A stretch of DNA of 29,034 bases from Allobaculum sp. GTDB lineage: Bacteria; Bacillota_I; Bacilli_A; Erysipelotrichales; Erysipelotrichaceae. Position 1 is the stretch's first letter. Each line of letters opens with the position of its first letter. Below are positions 1,288 to 10,983 of the stretch, piece after piece. The notes under the pieces are model-generated. The model worked only from the letters and a program-made list of their open reading frames with translations, searched no databases and had not been told where the DNA came from. A program made the translations under genes and the position numbers. The stretch is taken from NCBI GenBank assembly GCA_051873775.1, contig JBJEFF010000154.1, positions 1 to 29,034 of the forward strand, read 5' to 3'.

Positions 1288-3239
1288 TTACTCACCGCCT
1301 AATTCATAACTTTGCATCGGAGCTTTGACGACATGAATTCTCTGCTGCAGTTCACTTTGCAAAATCAGATCTTCATTGTCATCAAACAGGTGGAGGTCAA
1401 AGCCGGCAGCCCGGTTAACCTGAATCGTCAGCAGCTGACGCAATGCTTCAAACTGTTTGTACTGCATCGTTCCCATATATTCATGCATCGAAATAATCTC
1501 GACCTGTGGAAAATGCTGTTCCGGTTTTTCCAGATAGTCATAGATCGAAATGGATCTGGATTCTAACTGTTTTGCATTCGTCTCCTTACCCTGGAAAATA
1601 TACAGTCCGGTAATTTCATCTTCAGCCGCAATCGGCGAGATCGAAAACAGATAGCGATAGACAAGCGGAATTACTTTATAGTCTTTAACATTCTGATAAG
1701 ACGAATACTTGGCATCTCCGATGATGTAGCGGGCACCTTTCCAGTATCGGCTTTCCAGTTTAAGGATATAGTCCGGCGTGTAGTAGTGGCCTTTAGCAAT
1801 TTCACCCCAACCTCTAGGGAATGAGAGCGAAGTATTGCGGACCAGACCGGTTTTTACACACTCCGGATTCCCCGGTTCATAGATTACCGGTTCATAGTAA
1901 AGTGTAATTTTAACGTCTTTCTTTTCAAATTCGAAGTAGTTGTTCACTTCGGAATTCTGATAGAAATAAGCTTCGTTTTTGTCATATAGAACTTTATGAC
2001 TCGTGAGTAAGGTAAATCCGTTCTCTTTCATAAAATCCCCGAGTTTGGAAAGCACGTAGACTTCATACAGATTCGTGATCTGCAGAAATGCGGTCGCAAA
2101 ACGGATATCCCCTGCCGTGACATTCTTGAGCGCAAACCAGTTCTGAATTTCACTGAATACCTGACGGTACCCGCGGTTTCTCGCAAAGACAGGAGTCATT
2201 TTGGGTGGGGTGCTTAAATACTGCTCACGAGCCGGAATGATTTTTTCAAACATGCCGTGCAGACGATGGAATCCTACCTGAAGGTGTTGAATATCTTCTT
2301 TAAGATGGTTCAGGGTCAGAATTGTGGCCTTTGACATATAGACCGAGGAAGAGACATAACCTTTTTCCACTTCGAGTTTTTTGGGCAGCGTATCAATCAG
2401 CTGTTCAATTTCCACAGTCAGTCCAGCCAGTTCACGATTTATTGTGTTTAAAAACGAAAGAATAACCCGATTTTCATAGGTATCCGTACTGAGTGTTTTT
2501 GTCTGTATCATCCGTGTTGTAGGACTAAATGAATCACCGGCAACACGGGCGACACCCGGATTCGGCAAAGAAAGCGTATTAGGATGTCTTGTCATCTCCT
2601 TCATGCGACTATAGCTTACCATGGAACGGCTCGGAGATTTTTCTTCCTGAAATGCGCGGTTTGCCTGAATTTCACGCAGCGCAGATTCCATCAACACCGT
2701 GCAGCGTTTCAGCAGGCGGACCTTATCTTCAAGGGAATGCTGGGATTCAGCACACTGATCGTCGCACCGCATATAGTCGGCATTCGTTCCGTACAGCAGC
2801 AAGTCGCTATGCAATGCGGTGTATTTGCCGATCGCATTGGCATTGAAATTCTCCGGTCCGGGATGAACCATCACCTGGATATACGGGGTGACGAGACGAC
2901 AGTTTCCTTCTTTGCAGCGAAAGCTCAGCTCGATCTTTGCCAGCCCGAAGGAGTCGGCAAAGATACGGCTGTTGTTGTAAGGGTCGTAAAAGTAGATGCG
3001 GCCGGTATTGCCATGATAGGTGTTATTGACCGCATAGCCATTGACGAAAAATCAATGGAGCTGATATCGGACGTGATCGGAGACAGAAGCTGTCCGATAT
3101 AACTGCTGTTCGCAAAGATTTTCTGATCGGGAAGCTGAATCACTTTACTGATCGGCTGAACCTGTTTTGCGTCAAACAGGTCCAGTTCAATCAGATCCTG
3201 ATTCGCTTCGTCCATCAGACGAAGTCGGAATTCTCTCAT
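1288..3239 (-). pseudogene. McrC-like PD-(D/E)xK nuclease subunit (DUF2357/McrC family), interrupted by a +/-1 frameshift at an A5 run (3047-3051)
   Basis: The main ORF 1288-2874 (GTG start) carries a textbook C-terminal PD-(D/E)xK motif: YTPDYILKL...ARYIIGDAKY. Its frame stays open upstream to 3051 (…FFVNGYAVNNTYHGNTGRIYFYDPYNN…). A second ORF starts at an ATG that overlaps the stop of the upstream mcrB-like gene (ATGA at 3236-3239). It reads MREFRLRLMDEANQDLIELDLFDAKQ…SSIDF up to the same A5 run. Inserting one base in the run joins the two ORFs into one protein of about 650 aa. Confidence 0.65.
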
Positions 3240-5890
3240 TGTTCGAAATACTGGTAGTACTGCATGGATTCGTCTCCGTGTCTGAGTATGGCATCCAGTT
3301 TTGCCTTACTCATAGTTAGGTGATTCGTTTCCAGGCACTGTCCGATTCTGACTAAGACATTGCGGTAGCCGATCGAAGTGCCGTTAATCTGGGTCATCAT
3401 TCTCTGCAGAATCGCAAAGTCTAAGGCGATCAGTGCACTGTTGCGAAGAACATTTCCTTCTTCATCCGTTTCATCATCAAACCATCTAGCCGCATTGAGA
3501 ATATAGCGGCGAATGGCCTGATCGCTTCGGCGGGAGAGATACGTTCCAGCCTGAGCGAAGGCTTCACAAACGTTCTGATAAACAGATTCGAGATCGGAGG
3601 CAAGGTCAATATGAGTTGTATCGATATTGAACGCTCTGGCAAGCTGATCTTCGTTAAAGAGCTCGTCTGTTAAATGCAGCAGTTTTACCTTTTCATGCAG
3701 ATTTTCCTGATGCGGATGATCCGGCATGTTAATGACGAATGCACGGTCAAGCAGTCTTGCGGAAATTGGTTCGAACGACTGATCCGTCTGTATCGTAGCC
3801 GCAAAATGGAGCGCATCCGGAATCTGATAATTATAATTTTCACCGAGTTTGAGCGTACCGCGTATGAATCCGTGCGGCTTATCCCCTTCGTCGAGAACCA
3901 GTTCTGGTGTTTCCTGCATCGCCATAAAATCCGACCAGTAGTATTCCATATGAGAAAGGTTGGCATCATCGAGCATAATGAGTGCCGGAAGCATGCTTTC
4001 CTTCAGATTACGGCTTTGAATATTCAGAATGGAAAGCAGGTCAAATAATTGCGGATTCATTTTTTCAAAACTGTGCGTCAGTGAATTATAGAAGCCGATA
4101 AAGTCACGGGAATTCACCCAGCCCCGTTCCACCTGTACACGCACGAACCGGCTGCAGTTCATCATGCCCTCGTACTGGGATTCGACAGAGCGCGGTTTTT
4201 CAAGATTGAGAACTTCACGGACAATTTCCAGGGTACTCGATTTACCTGAACCAACCGGTCCCGTAAATAGTGTCATAAAGCTCTGATGCAGACAGATGAT
4301 GATATTCAGAATCTCATTGCGTGAGTAATCCGGACGGTATGCCGCAAAATTATGCACCAGCAGATTGACCATGCTTTCCGGATCAAGAACAGAAACGGGT
4401 AAGGCATTTATCAGACGGGCAGCCTGTACGCTGGACTGTTCAAGCAGCAAGCGTGCACGTTTTTCACTCTGTTCGCCGATGCGCTGGCTGATAATATGAT
4501 CGACACTCATCTCGAGTGCCTTATTAGCCGAACGTTCCAGAAGCTGATCCACCTGATTATCCAGATCGCGCAGCTGAGCTTTGAGCACATCACTTTCTTT
4601 CTGCATCCGTTCATTTTCCAGACGGAGCAGTGAGCTCTGCTTTTCAAGCTGTTCAACTTCACTCGCGAGATTGGCGGTTTTCAGTGTTTTCTTCAGCCGG
4701 TCTTCCGCCTGATTCTGCAGGCGCTGCAGTTCGGCGAGCGAGTTGCGGTAATTCTCAATTTTTCTGCTTGCTTCCAGTGTTGCAAGTTCACTGACCTGAG
4801 TTCTCAAATCCTGTTCAAGCTCTTTAAGATCGGCTACCTGTTCTTCCAGCTCCGTTTTCTGTTCATATAACGGCTTGAACGAATCAATCGAATGCAGGAA
4901 GTGATCGTCATGCGCAAGCGCATCGATCATCGTCGCATAGACCGGATCGTCCTTATACTGGACAAATAGCTCTCCGGCAAGTTTAGAAATCATGTCGAGT
5001 GTTTCGTCAAAATCAATTTTGGTTTTCAGCACAGTAAAGAGTTTGTTCTTACGTGCTTCTGCTGCTTCCTGAGAGAAATTATTCGGGGACAGCAGCCAGT
5101 TCTGATACACCTCCACCATATGGCGAGCACTATCTTCATTAAAGCGGTAATTTTTCGACATGCGCTTCTGGGTCAGTGTGCGCAGATCTTCAACTAATTC
5201 AGAGATAGTAATTTCATCGTAAATATAAGGTTCAACATTTTCACCGCCGACCTGCAGATAGGTTCGGGTTACATCTTCCTGTTCAAGCAGAACGGAATGA
5301 CGGAGAAGTCCGTCGGTAAACTGATAGCCGCGGATCACTTTATTCTGCGCATCCGCATTGCACCGTACAAAAATTACATTGTTAATTTCGTCGTAATGAA
5401 CTTTAAACGGTCCGATTACCACGTTTGGAATGTCACAGGCGAGCAATACCTCCATATTTTCATTAATGTTATTGCTGTCGATCTCAATACGGTTATCCGT
5501 GCGCCAGTCGCCGATCTGATACTTGCGATCCACCAGGCAGTAGCAGCCCAGTTCTTCCATGCGTCTTATTTTTCTGCCGTAAAGCTCGGCAATATCCAGT
5601 TTCCATGCACTCGGATATCTCGTACCGTCTATTTTGCAGTTAGGGAGTAAATCTTCCGTATCAAAATCAAGAATAAAATCGTCACCGTCCTGAAATATGT
5701 CCTCTAAAGAAATCAGACTGGAACTCGAAACTAAATTAATGTTCTGGTAAACCGAATTCGGTAAAAGCACTTCTAAATCCTGTCTGGTTAAATAATCAAA
5801 TTCCTGGTCATGATATAAATAGCCGGGATAAAAATTGACATAAAAACCGTTTCGCGTATTGATTTTAATTTCGCCAACATACGCTGCCAT
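3236..5890 (-). CDS. McrB-like AAA+ GTPase (AAA_5) with an N-terminal domain of about 330 aa (unknown function) and a central coiled coil; CoCoNuT/McrBC-like defence component
   Basis: Walker A LFTGPVGSGKSSTLEI. A Walker B block LIMLDDANLSHMEYYW…MQE and a downstream HFAATIQTDQSF…RLLDRAFVINMPD block align with McrB IIDEINRANLSKVFGE… and IIGLMNTADRS…RRRFSFIDI. An E/Q/L-rich heptad-like stretch of about 130 aa (ELEEQVADLKELEQDLRTQVSELATLEASRK…) lies N-terminal to the ATPase. RBS aaggtg. Confidence 0.75.
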   Translation of the reverse strand: MAAYVGEIKINTRNGFYVNFYPGYLYHDQEFDYLTRQDLEVLLPNSVYQNINLVSSSSLISLEDIFQDGDDFILDFDTEDLLPNCKIDGTRYPSAWKLDIAELYGRKIRRMEELGCYCLVDRKYQIGDWRTDNRIEIDSNNINENMEVLLACDIPNVVIGPFKVHYDEINNVIFVRCNADAQNKVIRGYQFTDGLLRHSVLLEQEDVTRTYLQVGGENVEPYIYDEITISELVEDLRTLTQKRMSKNYRFNEDSARHMVEVYQNWLLSPNNFSQEAAEARKNKLFTVLKTKIDFDETLDMISKLAGELFVQYKDDPVYATMIDALAHDDHFLHSIDSFKPLYEQKTELEEQVADLKELEQDLRTQVSELATLEASRKIENYRNSLAELQRLQNQAEDRLKKTLKTANLASEVEQLEKQSSLLRLENERMQKESDVLKAQLRDLDNQVDQLLERSANKALEMSVDHIISQRIGEQSEKRARLLLEQSSVQAARLINALPVSVLDPESMVNLLVHNFAAYRPDYSRNEILNIIICLHQSFMTLFTGPVGSGKSSTLEIVREVLNLEKPRSVESQYEGMMNCSRFVRVQVERGWVNSRDFIGFYNSLTHSFEKMNPQLFDLLSILNIQSRNLKESMLPALIMLDDANLSHMEYYWSDFMAMQETPELVLDEGDKPHGFIRGTLKLGENYNYQIPDALHFAATIQTDQSFEPISARLLDRAFVINMPDHPHQENLHEKVKLLHLTDELFNEDQLARAFNIDTTHIDLASDLESVYQNVCEAFAQAGTYLSRRSDQAIRRYILNAARWFDDETDEEGNVLRNSALIALDFAILQRMMTQINGTSIGYRNVLVRIGQCLETNHLTMSKAKLDAILRHGDESMQYYQYFEQ

Positions 5891-6044
5891 GCGGACACCT
5901 TCTTTCTTCTCAGTAAATATGATATTTATTTCATTATATCCTTATCTCAACATTATAGTTTTTTATTTTGAAGACAAATATTTCGCTCACTATTTGTGAT
6001 ACTCTTTTCGCCCGCAATCGTGGCAGATTTTTTATTTTATCCTC

Positions 6045-6087
6045 TTTGCGAAAACCAAAAAGAAAACCCACTCGCACTGGAGTGGGC
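6045..6087 (-). terminator. Rho-independent terminator downstream of guaB
   Basis: On the - strand, a 7-bp stem cccactc / gagtggg is followed by gttttctttttggtttt. Confidence 0.6.
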
Positions 6088-6128
6088 ATTCAGTTCATGA
6101 AAAATACACAGAATCAGTTCTAATAGGC

Positions 6129-7643
6129 TTAGTGGTTGGAAGAATCGATTTTATCGTCGCGGACTAATACGTCATGAGCGCCGCCTTCGGAAATGGAGAC
6201 AGCGGATACCAGAGTGACTTTGGCGTCTTTCTGGAAATCAGGGATATTGAGGAATCCGCAGTTGCACATTGTATGTTTGATTTTGGAAATTGTGAGGTTA
6301 ACGTTGTCAGCTAAAGCGCCTGCATATGGAACGTAAGAGTCAACACCTTCCACGAAGGACATTTTCTTGTCACCGCCGACATCATAACGCTGCCAGTTGC
6401 GGGCACGGGCAGAACCTTCGCCCCAGTACTCTTTCATATAGGAACCATTGATAGTGACGATTTTGCTTGGAGATTCTTTGAAGCGGGCAAAGTAACGGCC
6501 TAACATCACGAAGTCTGCACCGAAGGCAAGAGCTAAAGTCATGTGATAGTCCTGAACGATACCACCGTCGGAGCATAATGGTACATATACGCCGGTTTCT
6601 TCATAGTAAGCATCACGGGCTTTTGCGACTTCGATCGTTGCAGTAGCCTGACCGCGTCCGATACCTTTCTGTTCACGGGTAATACAGATGGAACCGCCGC
6701 CGATACCGATTTTAACGAAGTCAGCACCTGCATCCGCAAGGAAACGGAAGCCGTCTGCATCAACAACATTACCTGCACCGACTTTTACTGTGTCACCGTA
6801 TTTTTCACGGATCCATGCGATGGTGTCAGCCTGCCAGCAGGAGTAACCTTCGGAAGAGTCAATAACAAGAATATCGGCGCCTGCTTCTACAAGAGCCGGT
6901 ACACGGTCTTTATAGTCACGGGAGTTGATTCCCGCACCAACTAAATAGCGTTTGTGGGAGTCGAGGACTTCATTCGGGTTTTCTTTATGTTGTTCGTAGT
7001 CTTTACGGAAGACGAATGCTTTTAAGTGACGTTCCTCATCAACGATTGGCAGCTGGTTCAGTTTGTTGTCCCAGATGATATCGTTGGCTTCGCTTAAAGA
7101 GATTCCTTCTTTGCCGACAATCAGCTTGTCATATGGAGTCATGACATCCTTGACATAAGTGTTGTCGAGATCCACGCGGGATTCACGGAAATCCCGGGAT
7201 GTGATCAGTCCGACCAGGACACCATCCTGTTGTCCGTTGTCAGTAACAGCCATTGTGGAATGACCAGTTTCCTGACGCAGTTTAATGACTTCGCGTAAAC
7301 TTGCTTCCGGGGAAACGTTGGAGTCGCTTCCGGTAAAACCAGCTTTCGTTGCTTTAACCTGACGGATCATTGCAGCTTCGCTTTCAATGGACTGGCTGCC
7401 GTAGATGAAGGAGATACCGCCTTCGCGTGCAAGTGCTACCGCAAGATCCGGTCCGGATACGGCCTGCATAACCGCAGAAGTGAGTGGGATATTTAGTTCA
7501 AGTGCCGGCTTTTCGCCTTTTTTGAATTTAACCAGTGGTGTCTTCAGACTTACTTTATCTGGAGTATCTTCCGGTCCGGTGTAGCCCGGAACTAACAGAT
7601 ATTCCGCGAACGTTCTAGATGGTTCCTGAAAAAATTTAGCCAT
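6129..7643 (-). CDS. guaB: IMP dehydrogenase (IMPDH/GuaB family, with an inserted CBS pair)
   Basis: N-terminal EYLLVPGY…[12 protein letters not shown]…AREGGISFI block. CBS-pair region (AVTDNG…LITSRDF…). Catalytic-loop [12 protein letters not shown], equivalent to the IMPDH GIGPGSICTTR. Protein is 504 aa. Strong RBS aggagg. Confidence 0.8.
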
Positions 7644-8000
7644 TTCATTCCTCCATAAATTTGTACGTATTTTTTTCGATTTTTACTTATTTTAACCACG
7701 ACAAATGAAGTGTCAAATAGGAAAATCGCACCTTGAAAAAGAAACAGTTTTCAACACTCGAAGTATCGAAAAATCCATGCCGAAACGGGAATAAAGTATC
7801 GCAAATACACAAAATGATCGAACTTGAAAAAGCTCGATCATTTCAGGTTGTTTGTTTCATTTTTTTACATTTTTAAATGACAGTTCGTCATTTCCGCTTC
7901 GAATATAGTTAACTCTAATTCAGAAAATCCATATTCTTTACTGAATTTCCTCTTTTAGAGCAGATTCGAAAGAAAGAGTCAATCCGTATCGATCCCCCGT

Positions 8001-10100
8001 CTATGCAAGCTGAACAACAATTACGCTAAGCGGCGGAATCGTGATGGAGTTTGTGATCGGCAGGTTGATCAGTTCGGAATCAAACAGAATCGTTCCGTCC
8101 TGATGCAGATTGTAGTGGAAACTGGAATCGGTCGGATTGAAGAAGGAAATGAGTTCTTCGTTTTCATCCTTGGTCCGGTAGACGAGTACCCGGTCGTCAA
8201 TCGTTTCAGTATGAACGTGTTCGATAATTTTCTCTTTTGTGTTCAGACGGAATGATGAATGTTCACGGCGCAGTCTGGCGAGTGCCTTGAACTGTTCAAC
8301 TACCAGTTCAAAATCGTTACGGCGGTGGTAGTCGATCATGTTGTAATTGTCCGAACGGTTATAGGTATTCCCTAGATTCTGTTTGGTGCGTCCGAATTCC
8401 TGACCGCAGTGAATAAACGGAGTTCCCTGAGCGAGGAGAACCATCGCCAGCGAAAGAACCTGTTTTTTCATACGTACAGAGCGTGGTTCATGGAAACATA
8501 CGGCACGGTTTTTATCCCACATCGTATGGTTGTCATGACATTCAACATAGTTAACCGCTTTAAACGGCTGATCATAGCGGTTTTCCGGAATCGATGCCTG
8601 CATGACAATTGCGGCATCATGAATACGGCCGACATTGCCGTTAGAGTAACCCGCCTGTTCAAGCTGGTCATTGCTGCCGCGGATCACTTCGCGGAAACGG
8701 TCGGAGAACTGGCCTACTAAAGGCATTTTGGCCTGATTGTTTTGGGAAGCACGCAGGTCGGATGGCACAAAGCTTGGCATATCCCATCCTTCCCCGTAGA
8801 TCATGAAATCCGGTTTGACAGATTTGGCATATTCGGCAATCGCATTGAGCAAAGTGTAATCGAGAACCCCCATCAGGTCAAAGCGGAAGCCGTCGACATC
8901 AAAGACGTTGATATACATCTTGATGCAGTCAAGCAGATAGCGACGGCACATTTCCGGACGGGTATCAATATCGTTTCCGCAGAAAGAGCCGTTGGAATAG
9001 TGACCCTGGGAATCCATCAGGAAGAAATAGTCCGGAACAAGCTGATCAAGGGCATAGTCTTCCCTTTTCCAGACGTGGTTGAAGACTAAATCAAGATTCA
9101 CTTTCATCCCTGCGGCATGGAGATCCTGAATCATTTTCGCAAATTCGACAATCCGTTTTTCCGGTTCATAAGGATCAGTGGAATAGGATCCTTCCAGAGA
9201 GCGGTAATGCATCGGATCGTAGCCCCAGTTATAGTAGAAATCCGGATAATCTTCATCGATGGACCCGAAGTCAAAAACCGGCATCAGCTGCACATGGGTA
9301 ATTCCGAGTGTCTTGATATACGTCAGCCCGGTGTTGAGAATCCGAGTGGTTTCATTTTCTTCGGTAAACGCTTCGAAAGTACGCGGATGGGTAAATCCGT
9401 TATTTTTCTGGGAAGTCATATCGCGGATTGAGCATTCATAGATGATTGCATCCGTATCCTGTTTCATTGGTTCGGTCGGCACTTTCTGGGCCAGTTTGAG
9501 CAGGTCGAATGAGTTGACCTGAGAGAAACGGGTATTGATACCGGTAAACGGATTGTACGGATCGATGCATTCCTGCACTTTGCCATTCACTTTTAAACGG
9601 TAGGTATAGAGGGTACGAAGAAGATCTTCATTCAGACTTGCCGTCCAGACACCTTTTTCACCGCGTTCCATCGGAACAACACGGTCGCCCTCTTCTTCAT
9701 GAAGAATGACTTCCATCCATACAGCAACCGGAGACCAGATCGTCCAGGTGGTCTTTTCCGGGGTGTACGTGCAGCCGAGTTCAATATCTTCATCGGGGAT
9801 GAAGCTGTCCGCAAATTCCTTCGTTTTAACGATATGCGAATACTGAGCCGGACAGAACTGAGCATGTTCTTCATACATTAAATAATCATGGCCAATTTCG
9901 ATTTCGCCGTCCACCATGCAGGTGTACTGGATGTAATCGCCATAATCATCTTTTGATTGTATCGATAAAGGGACAATCTCCCCGTTTTCATCTTTTAGAT
10001 GGAAACTCTGGGACTGGCCCTGGTAAAAATCCTTGATCATGTAAATGTTCACGATGGAATAGCCATCGATGTAACATTCGAGACGTTCTTTCATGCGCAT
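8001..10100 (-). CDS. pulA: Type I pullulanase (GH13 family)
   Basis: Pullulanase signature YNWGYDP. GH13 catalytic regions (GFRFDLMG, EGWD) are present. Protein is 699 aa. Confidence 0.85.
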   Translation of the reverse strand: MRMKERLECYIDGYSIVNIYMIKDFYQGQSQSFHLKDENGEIVPLSIQSKDDYGDYIQYTCMVDGEIEIGHDYLMYEEHAQFCPAQYSHIVKTKEFADSFIPDEDIELGCTYTPEKTTWTIWSPVAVWMEVILHEEEGDRVVPMERGEKGVWTASLNEDLLRTLYTYRLKVNGKVQECIDPYNPFTGINTRFSQVNSFDLLKLAQKVPTEPMKQDTDAIIYECSIRDMTSQKNNGFTHPRTFEAFTEENETTRILNTGLTYIKTLGITHVQLMPVFDFGSIDEDYPDFYYNWGYDPMHYRSLEGSYSTDPYEPEKRIVEFAKMIQDLHAAGMKVNLDLVFNHVWKREDYALDQLVPDYFFLMDSQGHYSNGSFCGNDIDTRPEMCRRYLLDCIKMYINVFDVDGFRFDLMGVLDYTLLNAIAEYAKSVKPDFMIYGEGWDMPSFVPSDLRASQNNQAKMPLVGQFSDRFREVIRGSNDQLEQAGYSNGNVGRIHDAAIVMQASIPENRYDQPFKAVNYVECHDNHTMWDKNRAVCFHEPRSVRMKKQVLSLAMVLLAQGTPFIHCGQEFGRTKQNLGNTYNRSDNYNMIDYHRRNDFELVVEQFKALARLRREHSSFRLNTKEKIIEHVHTETIDDRVLVYRTKDENEELISFFNPTDSSFHYNLHQDGTILFDSELINLPITNSITIPPLSVIVVQLA

Positions 10101-10983
10101 AATGCTATCTCCTTAGTCAAGAATATCTTGGATGGGGATTCTTGAAATGATATATGTGGAATCAGGGTGTGATACCTGATGTTTACTGTTGGGGTTTCTC
10201 AGGAAAAACGGACTGCTGCTAGCGGGCTTAGCCGCTCTTTGTTCATGTTCCTGTCACATTCTTTCGGACATGAGTCTGCAGCTTTCACTGCGATTTTTGG
10301 GGGAAAAATCAGCTGATCACACTGTATGCAGACAGCCAGTAAAAGATAAAAATTTAAATAGCCAACAGTTGAAAATGTTAAACGAATTTCTTGTTCTCTG
10401 CAACAAATTTATCCCGATACTTACGTGCGATTCTGTCTTTGAAAAAGATTCATAAAACTCTGGACTGAAACCTTTCATTCCTTAAAACCATTCAGAATCC
10501 GCAACCGGTCATTTCATCAGGCTATTCGGTCTGCGGGACAATCTGTGTACGGTATAGCTGGTTATGAACTAAAAATGAAAATGTTCATATTAGGTAAACA
10601 GTTTAATGCCTATCTTCTTTTATTCTAAATCAATTCGAATTGAATACTGACTATTTTTTTGAAATTATCCGAGAACCTTTCCACTGCTTTGTCCGTTTTC
10701 TTCTTCTGCATTCATCTTCTGCCTGCTCATGCAGTTCTGAAACCGGCAAATCGGAACATGACCTTCGATCTTCCTGTTTTGCTTCATGGGGGACACACAT
10801 GATGAAATCGGGGATGAATCGATAGAATACGAAGGATTTTTTAAACGGATTGGGGAGAAAACGATTTTACATTTGATCTTTTACCGGTGATTTATAGATA
10901 CTAGTTCTAGAAATACACCCGAACGGATAAAGCATAACGATGCTTTCCAGACTAAAACAAGAAACTACAGAAAGAGGATCACT

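Follow-up and report, generated by a model that had tools for sequence, protein, structure and literature searches.

The closest described relatives of the gene pair considered here include the McrBC systems of E. coli and Thermococcus gammatolerans, which are Type IV restriction systems (PDB 6hz4, 6ut5). In the CoCoNuT systems and a related branch of McrBC, an NxD McrB-like GTPase is fused to long coiled coils (PMC11090510), and the asparagine of its signature motif is described as strictly conserved (Bell et al. 2024, PMC11090510). The McrC homologues that are paired with these GTPases carry an N-terminal Ig-like beta-sandwich, both in CoCoNuT and in non-CoCoNuT NxD systems (PMC11090510). 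The combination of a DUF2357 domain with a PD-(D/E)xK nuclease constitutes the McrC architecture, and both corresponding Pfam families are aliases of McrC (Bell et al. 2024, PMC11090510). In CoCoNuT Types I-A and I-C, CnuB and CnuC are the sole components (PMC11090510). A search of the literature for Allobaculum together with McrBC found nothing.

The window, by which we mean the whole analysed stretch of 29,034 nucleotides from a public MAG (NCBI Allobaculum sp.; locus tags ACI32F_07335, ACI32F_07340 and ACI32F_07345), contains a module of this kind, composed of two genes that are flanked by housekeeping genes. The nuclease gene is located directly downstream of a gene for a McrB-type NTPase and is coupled to it by an ATGA overlap (3239-3236), in which the stop of the ATPase gene and the start of the nuclease gene coincide. 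The nuclease gene is disrupted (Table 1). With a probability of about 0.75, we interpret its disruption as a recent, strain-specific knock-out, caused by the deletion of one A, of the nuclease in a CoCoNuT-like two-gene module.

Table 1 Features of the nuclease-ATPase module in the window. Positions refer to the window, residues to the intact proteins.
Feature	Position	Strand	Remarks
Partner ATPase gene, intact, 884 aa	3236..5890	-	N-terminal region, coiled coil ~330-490, C-terminal AAA+
ATPase motifs	4238-4261; 3953-3973; 3782-3796	-	Walker A GPVGSGKS; Walker B LDDANLS; TIQTD
Whole disrupted cnuC/mcrC-like nuclease gene	1288..3239	-	1952 nt; intact allele 1953 nt, 650 aa
ORF A	2925..3239	-	104 codons, 64 native and 40 out of frame; ACI32F_07340
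ORF B from GTG 2874	1288..2874	-	Frame open up to 3051; ATG 2871 is the start of the annotated 527-aa ACI32F_07335
Frameshift junction	3047..3051	-	Ancestral GAT-ATT-TTC (Asp63-Ile64-Phe65) minus A gives T5
N-terminal Ig-like beta-sandwich (residues 1-125)	2866..3239	-	Predicted (AF2); junction bisects it inside strand 61-66
DUF2357-like helical region (residues ~129-385)	2086..2856	-	Sub-threshold PF09823; AF2; long helices
PD-(D/E)xK domain (residues ~388-585)	1486..2079	-	D490 1771-1773, D509 1714-1716, K511 1708-1710
A-rich tract by TATAAT box	5952..5971	-	~60-80 nt upstream of ATPase ATG 5890; A4TA6 in the window

An ORF scan of the window showed that the minus-strand ORF starting with the ATG at 3239 comprises 104 codons and ends at the TGA at 2925-2927. 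Its native part covers 64 codons (...ITSDISSID) and is followed by F-S-S-M, so that the ORF reads ...SSIDFSSM and, meeting no immediate stop, continues past the junction for 40 aberrant codons. The second frame opens past the TGA at 3054-3052, reads FFVNGYAVNNTYHG... and stops at 1288. Its first start codon is the GTG at 2874 (528 aa), and the next is the ATG at 2871 (527 aa). Both frames meet at TTTTT on the coding strand (3051-3047), and the computed insertion of one T at this run results in a single ORF of 650 aa. The initial annotation had described this layout and had predicted that a one-base insertion would fuse both ORFs into a nuclease of about 650 aa; every one of its coordinates, including the internal GTG at 2874, was found again, and the fusion was obtained as predicted. 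T5 runs as such are unremarkable in the window, which contains 47 of them and 44 A5 runs.

The pairing of the two ORFs is not due to chance, since a 650-aa protein (P0001) that is present on many contigs matches the fused translation along its entire length at approximately 99% identity. Intact 650-aa orthologues are found within a cluster of 35 members, the 13 listed members of this length being encoded on 73 contigs, and 47 further homologues, mostly 600-830 aa long, cover 82-98% of the fused query. Two of the contigs encoding P0001 (L001 and L002) match the window at 99.8% identity over 12.0-12.4 kb, and their genes (His_Phos_1, SDR, nuclease, ATPase, IMPDH, pullulanase, fumarase) are arranged as in the window. 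Overall, syntenic relatives share 99.6-99.85% nucleotide identity with the window over up to 13.2 kb, and both genes are intact in at least 12 other runs.

At the junction, P0001 reads ...SSID-I-FVNGY and the T-inserted fusion from the window ...SSID-F-FVNGY. All 16 Allobaculum contigs that cover the site, namely L001, L002, ten contigs from other SRA runs and the partial contigs L004-L007, carry GATATTTTC (Asp-Ile-Phe) at this position, and the window carries GATTTTTC. Based on this comparison, the lesion is the loss of an A from the codon for Ile64, and the T5 run is the product of the deletion rather than its substrate. This differs from the mechanism suggested at first, a change in homopolymer length for which reads with T6 were to reveal an intact gene: the intact allele is T-A-TTTT in 16/16 relatives, and neither a T6 allele nor variation in the length of the T run was observed among these relatives at the junction. 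A contraction or sequencing slip from T6 to T5 is ruled out by the TATTTT of every relative. The comparison of the orthologous locus did recover an intact 650-aa gene and supports a split by a one-base frameshift. Relative to L001, the nuclease gene shows 4 substitutions in 1.95 kb, which matches the flanks, carries no second lesion and is colinear with P0001 up to the stop. Since the gene has no lesion besides the deletion and substitutions are not in excess over the flanks, the event is recent. It is also strain-specific, and besides the MAG the frameshift allele was detected in only one Logan sample.

The continuity of the gene across the junction extends to distant members of the family. 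In an alignment of 27 sequences including P0001, the 26 homologues (23-46% identity to P0001) share the start methionine and run unbroken through the junction. Y47 upstream and N67 downstream of the junction are invariant, and position 64 is mostly hydrophobic. The merged 650-aa translation is colinear with these homologues. Because of this colinearity, the N-terminal 64 aa do not normally form a separate protein, an alternative that is ruled out by the alignment.

Pfam searches with the nuclease yielded matches close to the thresholds, with PF04411 (PDDEXK_7) at residues 391-518 scoring 21.9 bits at a cut-off of 22.1, and PF09823 (DUF2357) at residues 209-362 having an E-value of 2.6e-3, which is under the gathering cut-off in the window protein. 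Many of the homologues carry PF09823 or PF04411 in their precomputed annotation. The C-terminal domain is a PD-(D/E)xK nuclease with the catalytic D...(D/E)xK residues, and P489-D490 as well as D509-A510-K511 are invariant in the 27 sequences. An AF2 model of P0001, calculated with the 27-sequence alignment (pLDDT 81, pTM 0.81), comprises an all-beta sandwich (residues 1-125), a helical part with very long helices (~129-385), an alpha/beta nuclease (~388-585) and a helical C-terminal tail. The beta-sandwich was modelled with pLDDT values of 81-93 and gave weak Ig-like matches in Foldseek. M124, which NCBI chose as the start of the 527-aa protein, is located in the last strand of this sandwich in the model. 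Structure comparison matched the nuclease fold to McrC and type II restriction enzymes, and a PDB sequence search with the nuclease profile returned nothing useful. The McrC-like identity proposed in the initial annotation is supported by fold and architecture. The same gene pair was also found in Fibrobacter (L008) and in a relative with ~45% identity (L009/L010).

By its fold, the partner ATPase is an AAA+ protein of the MoxR/dynein/McrB group. It contains both a Walker A and a Walker B motif, and in profile searches its residues ~330-490 matched the coiled-coil models DUF7491, JetC, DndD and TrlF. Ordinary homologue searches gave few matches (two for the full ATPase and five for the C-terminal domain), probably because coiled-coil words swamped the index. 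An exhaustive search of representatives with the C-terminal 392 residues gave 3398 cluster representatives at E <= 1e-3. The family consensus of GxPGxGKTS, LLDEANLS and ATINNDHTT corresponds to the NxD signature. The strictly conserved asparagine is absent from the ATPase in the window, which shows Q-T-D (residues 699-703, TIQTD) and not N-N-D. A Q-x-D motif is also present in the close relatives P0079, P0085, P0086, P0088 and P0089, and P0087 retains N-T-D. Furthermore, Walker B (residues 640-646) reads D-D or D-N instead of D-E in the window and all six closest relatives. The family therefore appears to belong to the NxD clade, with most of the lineage of the window lacking the asparagine. 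The replacement of the sensor-1 Asn and of the Walker B Glu in full-length proteins suggests that NTP hydrolysis may be altered or lost. PDB sequence searches with the full ATPase and with its N-terminus returned nothing useful, and a PDB search with the ATPase-domain profile retrieved only midasin and other generic AAA+ proteins. Pfam searches with nine ATPase homologues resulted in matches to AAA and AAA_5, all of them sub-threshold. Hence, the description of the partner as 'mcrB-like' holds loosely; it is more precisely a member of the coiled-coil NxD clade (CoCoNuT-like) whose catalytic motifs are altered in this lineage.

We consider it likely that the frameshift is a genuine allele, and we infer that the reads carry the deletion. 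The independent Logan assembly of SRR30616849 contains a contig of 2197 bp (L003) that is 100% identical to positions 1785-3981 of the window with 0 mismatches. It carries the same GATTTTTC at the junction, and the deletion is positioned in the interior of the contig and not at a contig break. This agreement excludes an artefact of one assembler. L003 belongs to the strain of the window itself, and its reads may be those of the MAG, which would leave room for a systematic read error.

An error of sequencing or consensus is unlikely. It would mean that the true allele of the strain is GATATTTTC in an intact 650-aa gene, from which sequencing or polishing had removed one base. The frameshift allele was seen only in the MAG and one Logan contig of the same strain, which possibly go back to common raw reads, but two assembly pipelines arrived at the same base call, at a site inside the Logan contig. 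Although the deletion of one base beside a run of T is the kind of error that long reads typically contain, it is an A that was lost here, and not the length of an existing homopolymer that was changed. The gene is free of any other defect, as would be expected of an error. However, the deletion at 3051 is the sole indel over ~13 kb that is common to every comparison and separates the window from all of its relatives. Since the remaining indels are located in a variable AT tract (5957-5965), in single relatives (10299 or 10788) or in one group (3212 in L004-L007), the contig is not riddled with indels and does not look error-prone. Finally, sister strains carry real knock-outs of this module, and such recurrent loss adds to the plausibility of a genuine knock-out in the window. 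An authentic inactivating mutation is the best supported of the options listed in the initial annotation, and a genuine, recent loss-of-function allele is most likely.

The lesions of the sister populations are of different kinds. In four Logan assemblies (L004-L007; SRR6338729, SRR6338730, SRR6338732 and SRR6338739), the nuclease gene carries a 1-bp deletion equivalent to position 3212 (codon 9/10). In the same contigs, homology ends at the equivalent of position 2637 (codon ~201), where foreign sequence starts. This foreign end is the terminal inverted repeat of an ISL3-family IS of ~1.5 kb with a 459-aa DDE_Tnp_ISL3 transposase (L026, 1953-3492). Four other assemblies (L011-L014; SRR19221405, SRR19221408, SRR19221419 and SRR19221428) have an ATPase gene that is interrupted directly behind Walker A, at the equivalent of position 4198, by the terminal repeat of an IS of ~2.2 kb with a 639-aa DDE_Tnp_1 transposase (L025, 2632-4807). 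The latter IS has imperfect inverted repeats of 39 nt and is also present in the Allobaculum MAG CAJTLE010000005.1. The foreign breakpoint tags of these strains were absent from the window, and the identity of the IS ends was derived from collection scans. Near-identical Allobaculum populations have knocked out the module independently, and the lesion in the window fits this pattern. The recurrent loss hints that the module may be dispensable or costly.

At 6066-6087 on the minus strand, just past the stop of the IMPDH gene, a hairpin resembling a terminator (GCCCACTCCAGTGCGAGTGGGT, with a T run behind it) suggests that the ATPase-nuclease pair may be transcribed from its own promoter. Directly upstream of the TATAAT box, the window as well as L018, L019, L021 and L023 read TCAAAATAAAAAAC-TATAAT, and other near-identical strains have TCA(8, 9 or 10)C-AATAAT at 5952-5971. 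No other tract of the locus shows length variation, which makes this one a better candidate than the T5 run for slippage-driven changes in expression. In the relative represented by L009/L010 (GCA_029782595.1; genes 5395-8001 and 8001-10325), an ATPase-nuclease pair with only ~45% protein identity is found at the chromosomal position known from the window, downstream of the genes for pullulanase and IMPDH. The module is therefore a long-standing resident of the locus and not an island acquired recently. L009 additionally has a duplicated or split IMPDH gene (532 and 447 aa).

It may be speculated, and we consider this quite unlikely, that the module is subject to recurrent on/off selection in gut Allobaculum, or that the frameshift allele gives rise to an N-truncated nuclease that is freed from a regulatory beta-sandwich. 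The idea of on/off selection is based on the independent knock-outs at less than 0.4% divergence (two 1-bp deletions, the ISL3 element and the DDE_Tnp_1 IS) together with the variable A tract. If true, it would characterise this McrBC/CoCoNuT relative, with an NTPase that lacks the canonical Asn and Glu, as costly or conditionally harmful.

The deletion of one A in codon 64 changed GAT ATT TTC to GAT TTT TC. Translation from the coupled ATG at 3239 would then lead to a dead-end peptide of 104 aa, consisting of half the beta-sandwich and 40 nonsense residues. Ribosomes would terminate at 2925, and the DUF2357 and nuclease domains would no longer be made from the native start. The effector would be lost and the ATPase gene left intact. 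Most probably, the module of this strain retains its ATPase, is devoid of its effector and yields no functional nuclease.

A downstream start could still rescue the nuclease. According to this explanation, which we regard as very unlikely, the mutation is real but reinitiation at ATG 2871 or GTG 2874 produces a nuclease of 527 or 528 aa that lacks the beta-sandwich and is perhaps deregulated. Such a product would begin almost exactly at the predicted boundary between the beta-sandwich and the helical region (M124), and NCBI annotated the 527-aa protein. ATG 2871 follows the stop of ORF A by only 54 nt, and sequence inspection showed that the native start of the nuclease gene has no Shine-Dalgarno sequence either and depends on the coupling to the ATPase stop. 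Furthermore, the Ig-like domain has been proposed as a possible regulator of the GTPase (Bell et al., PMC11090510). However, the AGGTG at ATG 2871, which is the sole element there that resembles a Shine-Dalgarno sequence, abuts the start codon with zero spacer, and GTG 2874 has no Shine-Dalgarno sequence. The beta-sandwich is kept with invariant residues in all 27 homologues, which argues for its necessity, and the destructive IS insertions in the sister strains fit loss rather than remodelling. Thus, the N-truncated protein of 528 aa that had been put forward is conceivable, but it would have no usable Shine-Dalgarno sequence and would lose the whole N-terminal beta-sandwich.

Phase variation is known from some restriction genes. 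Control of the nuclease at the T5 run, be it by a programmed -1 ribosomal frameshift or by a homopolymer switch with phase variation, is nevertheless so improbable that we reject it, together with the slippage-prone switch considered in the initial annotation: a slip of tRNA-Phe from TTT (3050-3048) to TTT (3051-3049) would restore the frame, but nothing at the site speaks for such a switch, which is neither conserved nor tract-polymorphic, as 16/16 relatives have the same non-homopolymeric GATATTTTC in frame with no change in the length of the T run, the distant homologues are all in frame, a T5 run is too short for efficient slippage and common in the window (47 runs), and the site does not conform to the canonical X XXY YYZ heptamer.

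In the public MAG, the two halves are annotated as separate hypothetical proteins (MGM9961100.1, 527 aa; MGM9961101.1, 104 aa) and not as one pseudogene. ACI32F_07335 and ACI32F_07340 represent one disrupted McrC/CnuC-like gene of 650 aa, for which a pseudogene label or a re-check of the reads is due, and the site should be counted neither as a homopolymer error nor as a phase-variation locus. The relatives together form a natural allele series in one gut species, composed of intact alleles and four knock-out lesions of an NxD-clade McrBC/CoCoNuT-like module. With this series, one could address the question of whether the module imposes a fitness cost or confers protection against phages. The frameshift itself reveals no new mechanism; the gene is an ordinary pseudogene, specific to one strain, in a kind of McrBC relative that was described recently. 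A modest upside lies in the population pattern of repeated knock-outs and in the variable A tract close to the promoter.

In comparison to known systems, the module resembles CoCoNuT and related NxD McrBC systems in the NxD signature of its family consensus and the Walker A and B motifs of the NTPase domain. As in CoCoNuT, a long coiled coil is predicted N-terminal to the NTPase domain, and as in CnuC and other McrC homologues of the NxD clade, the nuclease model has an Ig-like beta-sandwich at its N-terminus. The module comprises two genes only, as do Types I-A and I-C. As differences, the PD-(D/E)xK residues are intact and a second (tandem) nuclease is absent, and in the lineage of the window the strictly conserved Asn is replaced by Gln and the Walker B Glu by Asp or Asn. 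Searches with Pfam, NCBIfam, PADLOC and PDB sequences detected no HEPN, CSD, YTH, SmpB-like or zinc-ribbon domains. Because no RNA-linked accessory domain was found, we refer to the module as CoCoNuT-like and not as a typed CoCoNuT, a designation that is based on motifs and architecture. PADLOC also pointed to the candidate system PDC-M26, with the ATPase matching PDLC04547 (PDC-M26A; E = 1.2e-8) at residues 345-661. This match is partial, the candidate system is uncharacterised, and the nuclease matches no PDC-M26 model. Presumably, the module acts as a defence or restriction system. The split gene in turn is similar to ordinary restriction or defence pseudogenes inactivated by frameshifts or IS elements, as it shows a 1-nt deletion and a premature stop, with other lesions in sister strains, and it is set apart from these only by its public annotation as two hypothetical proteins.
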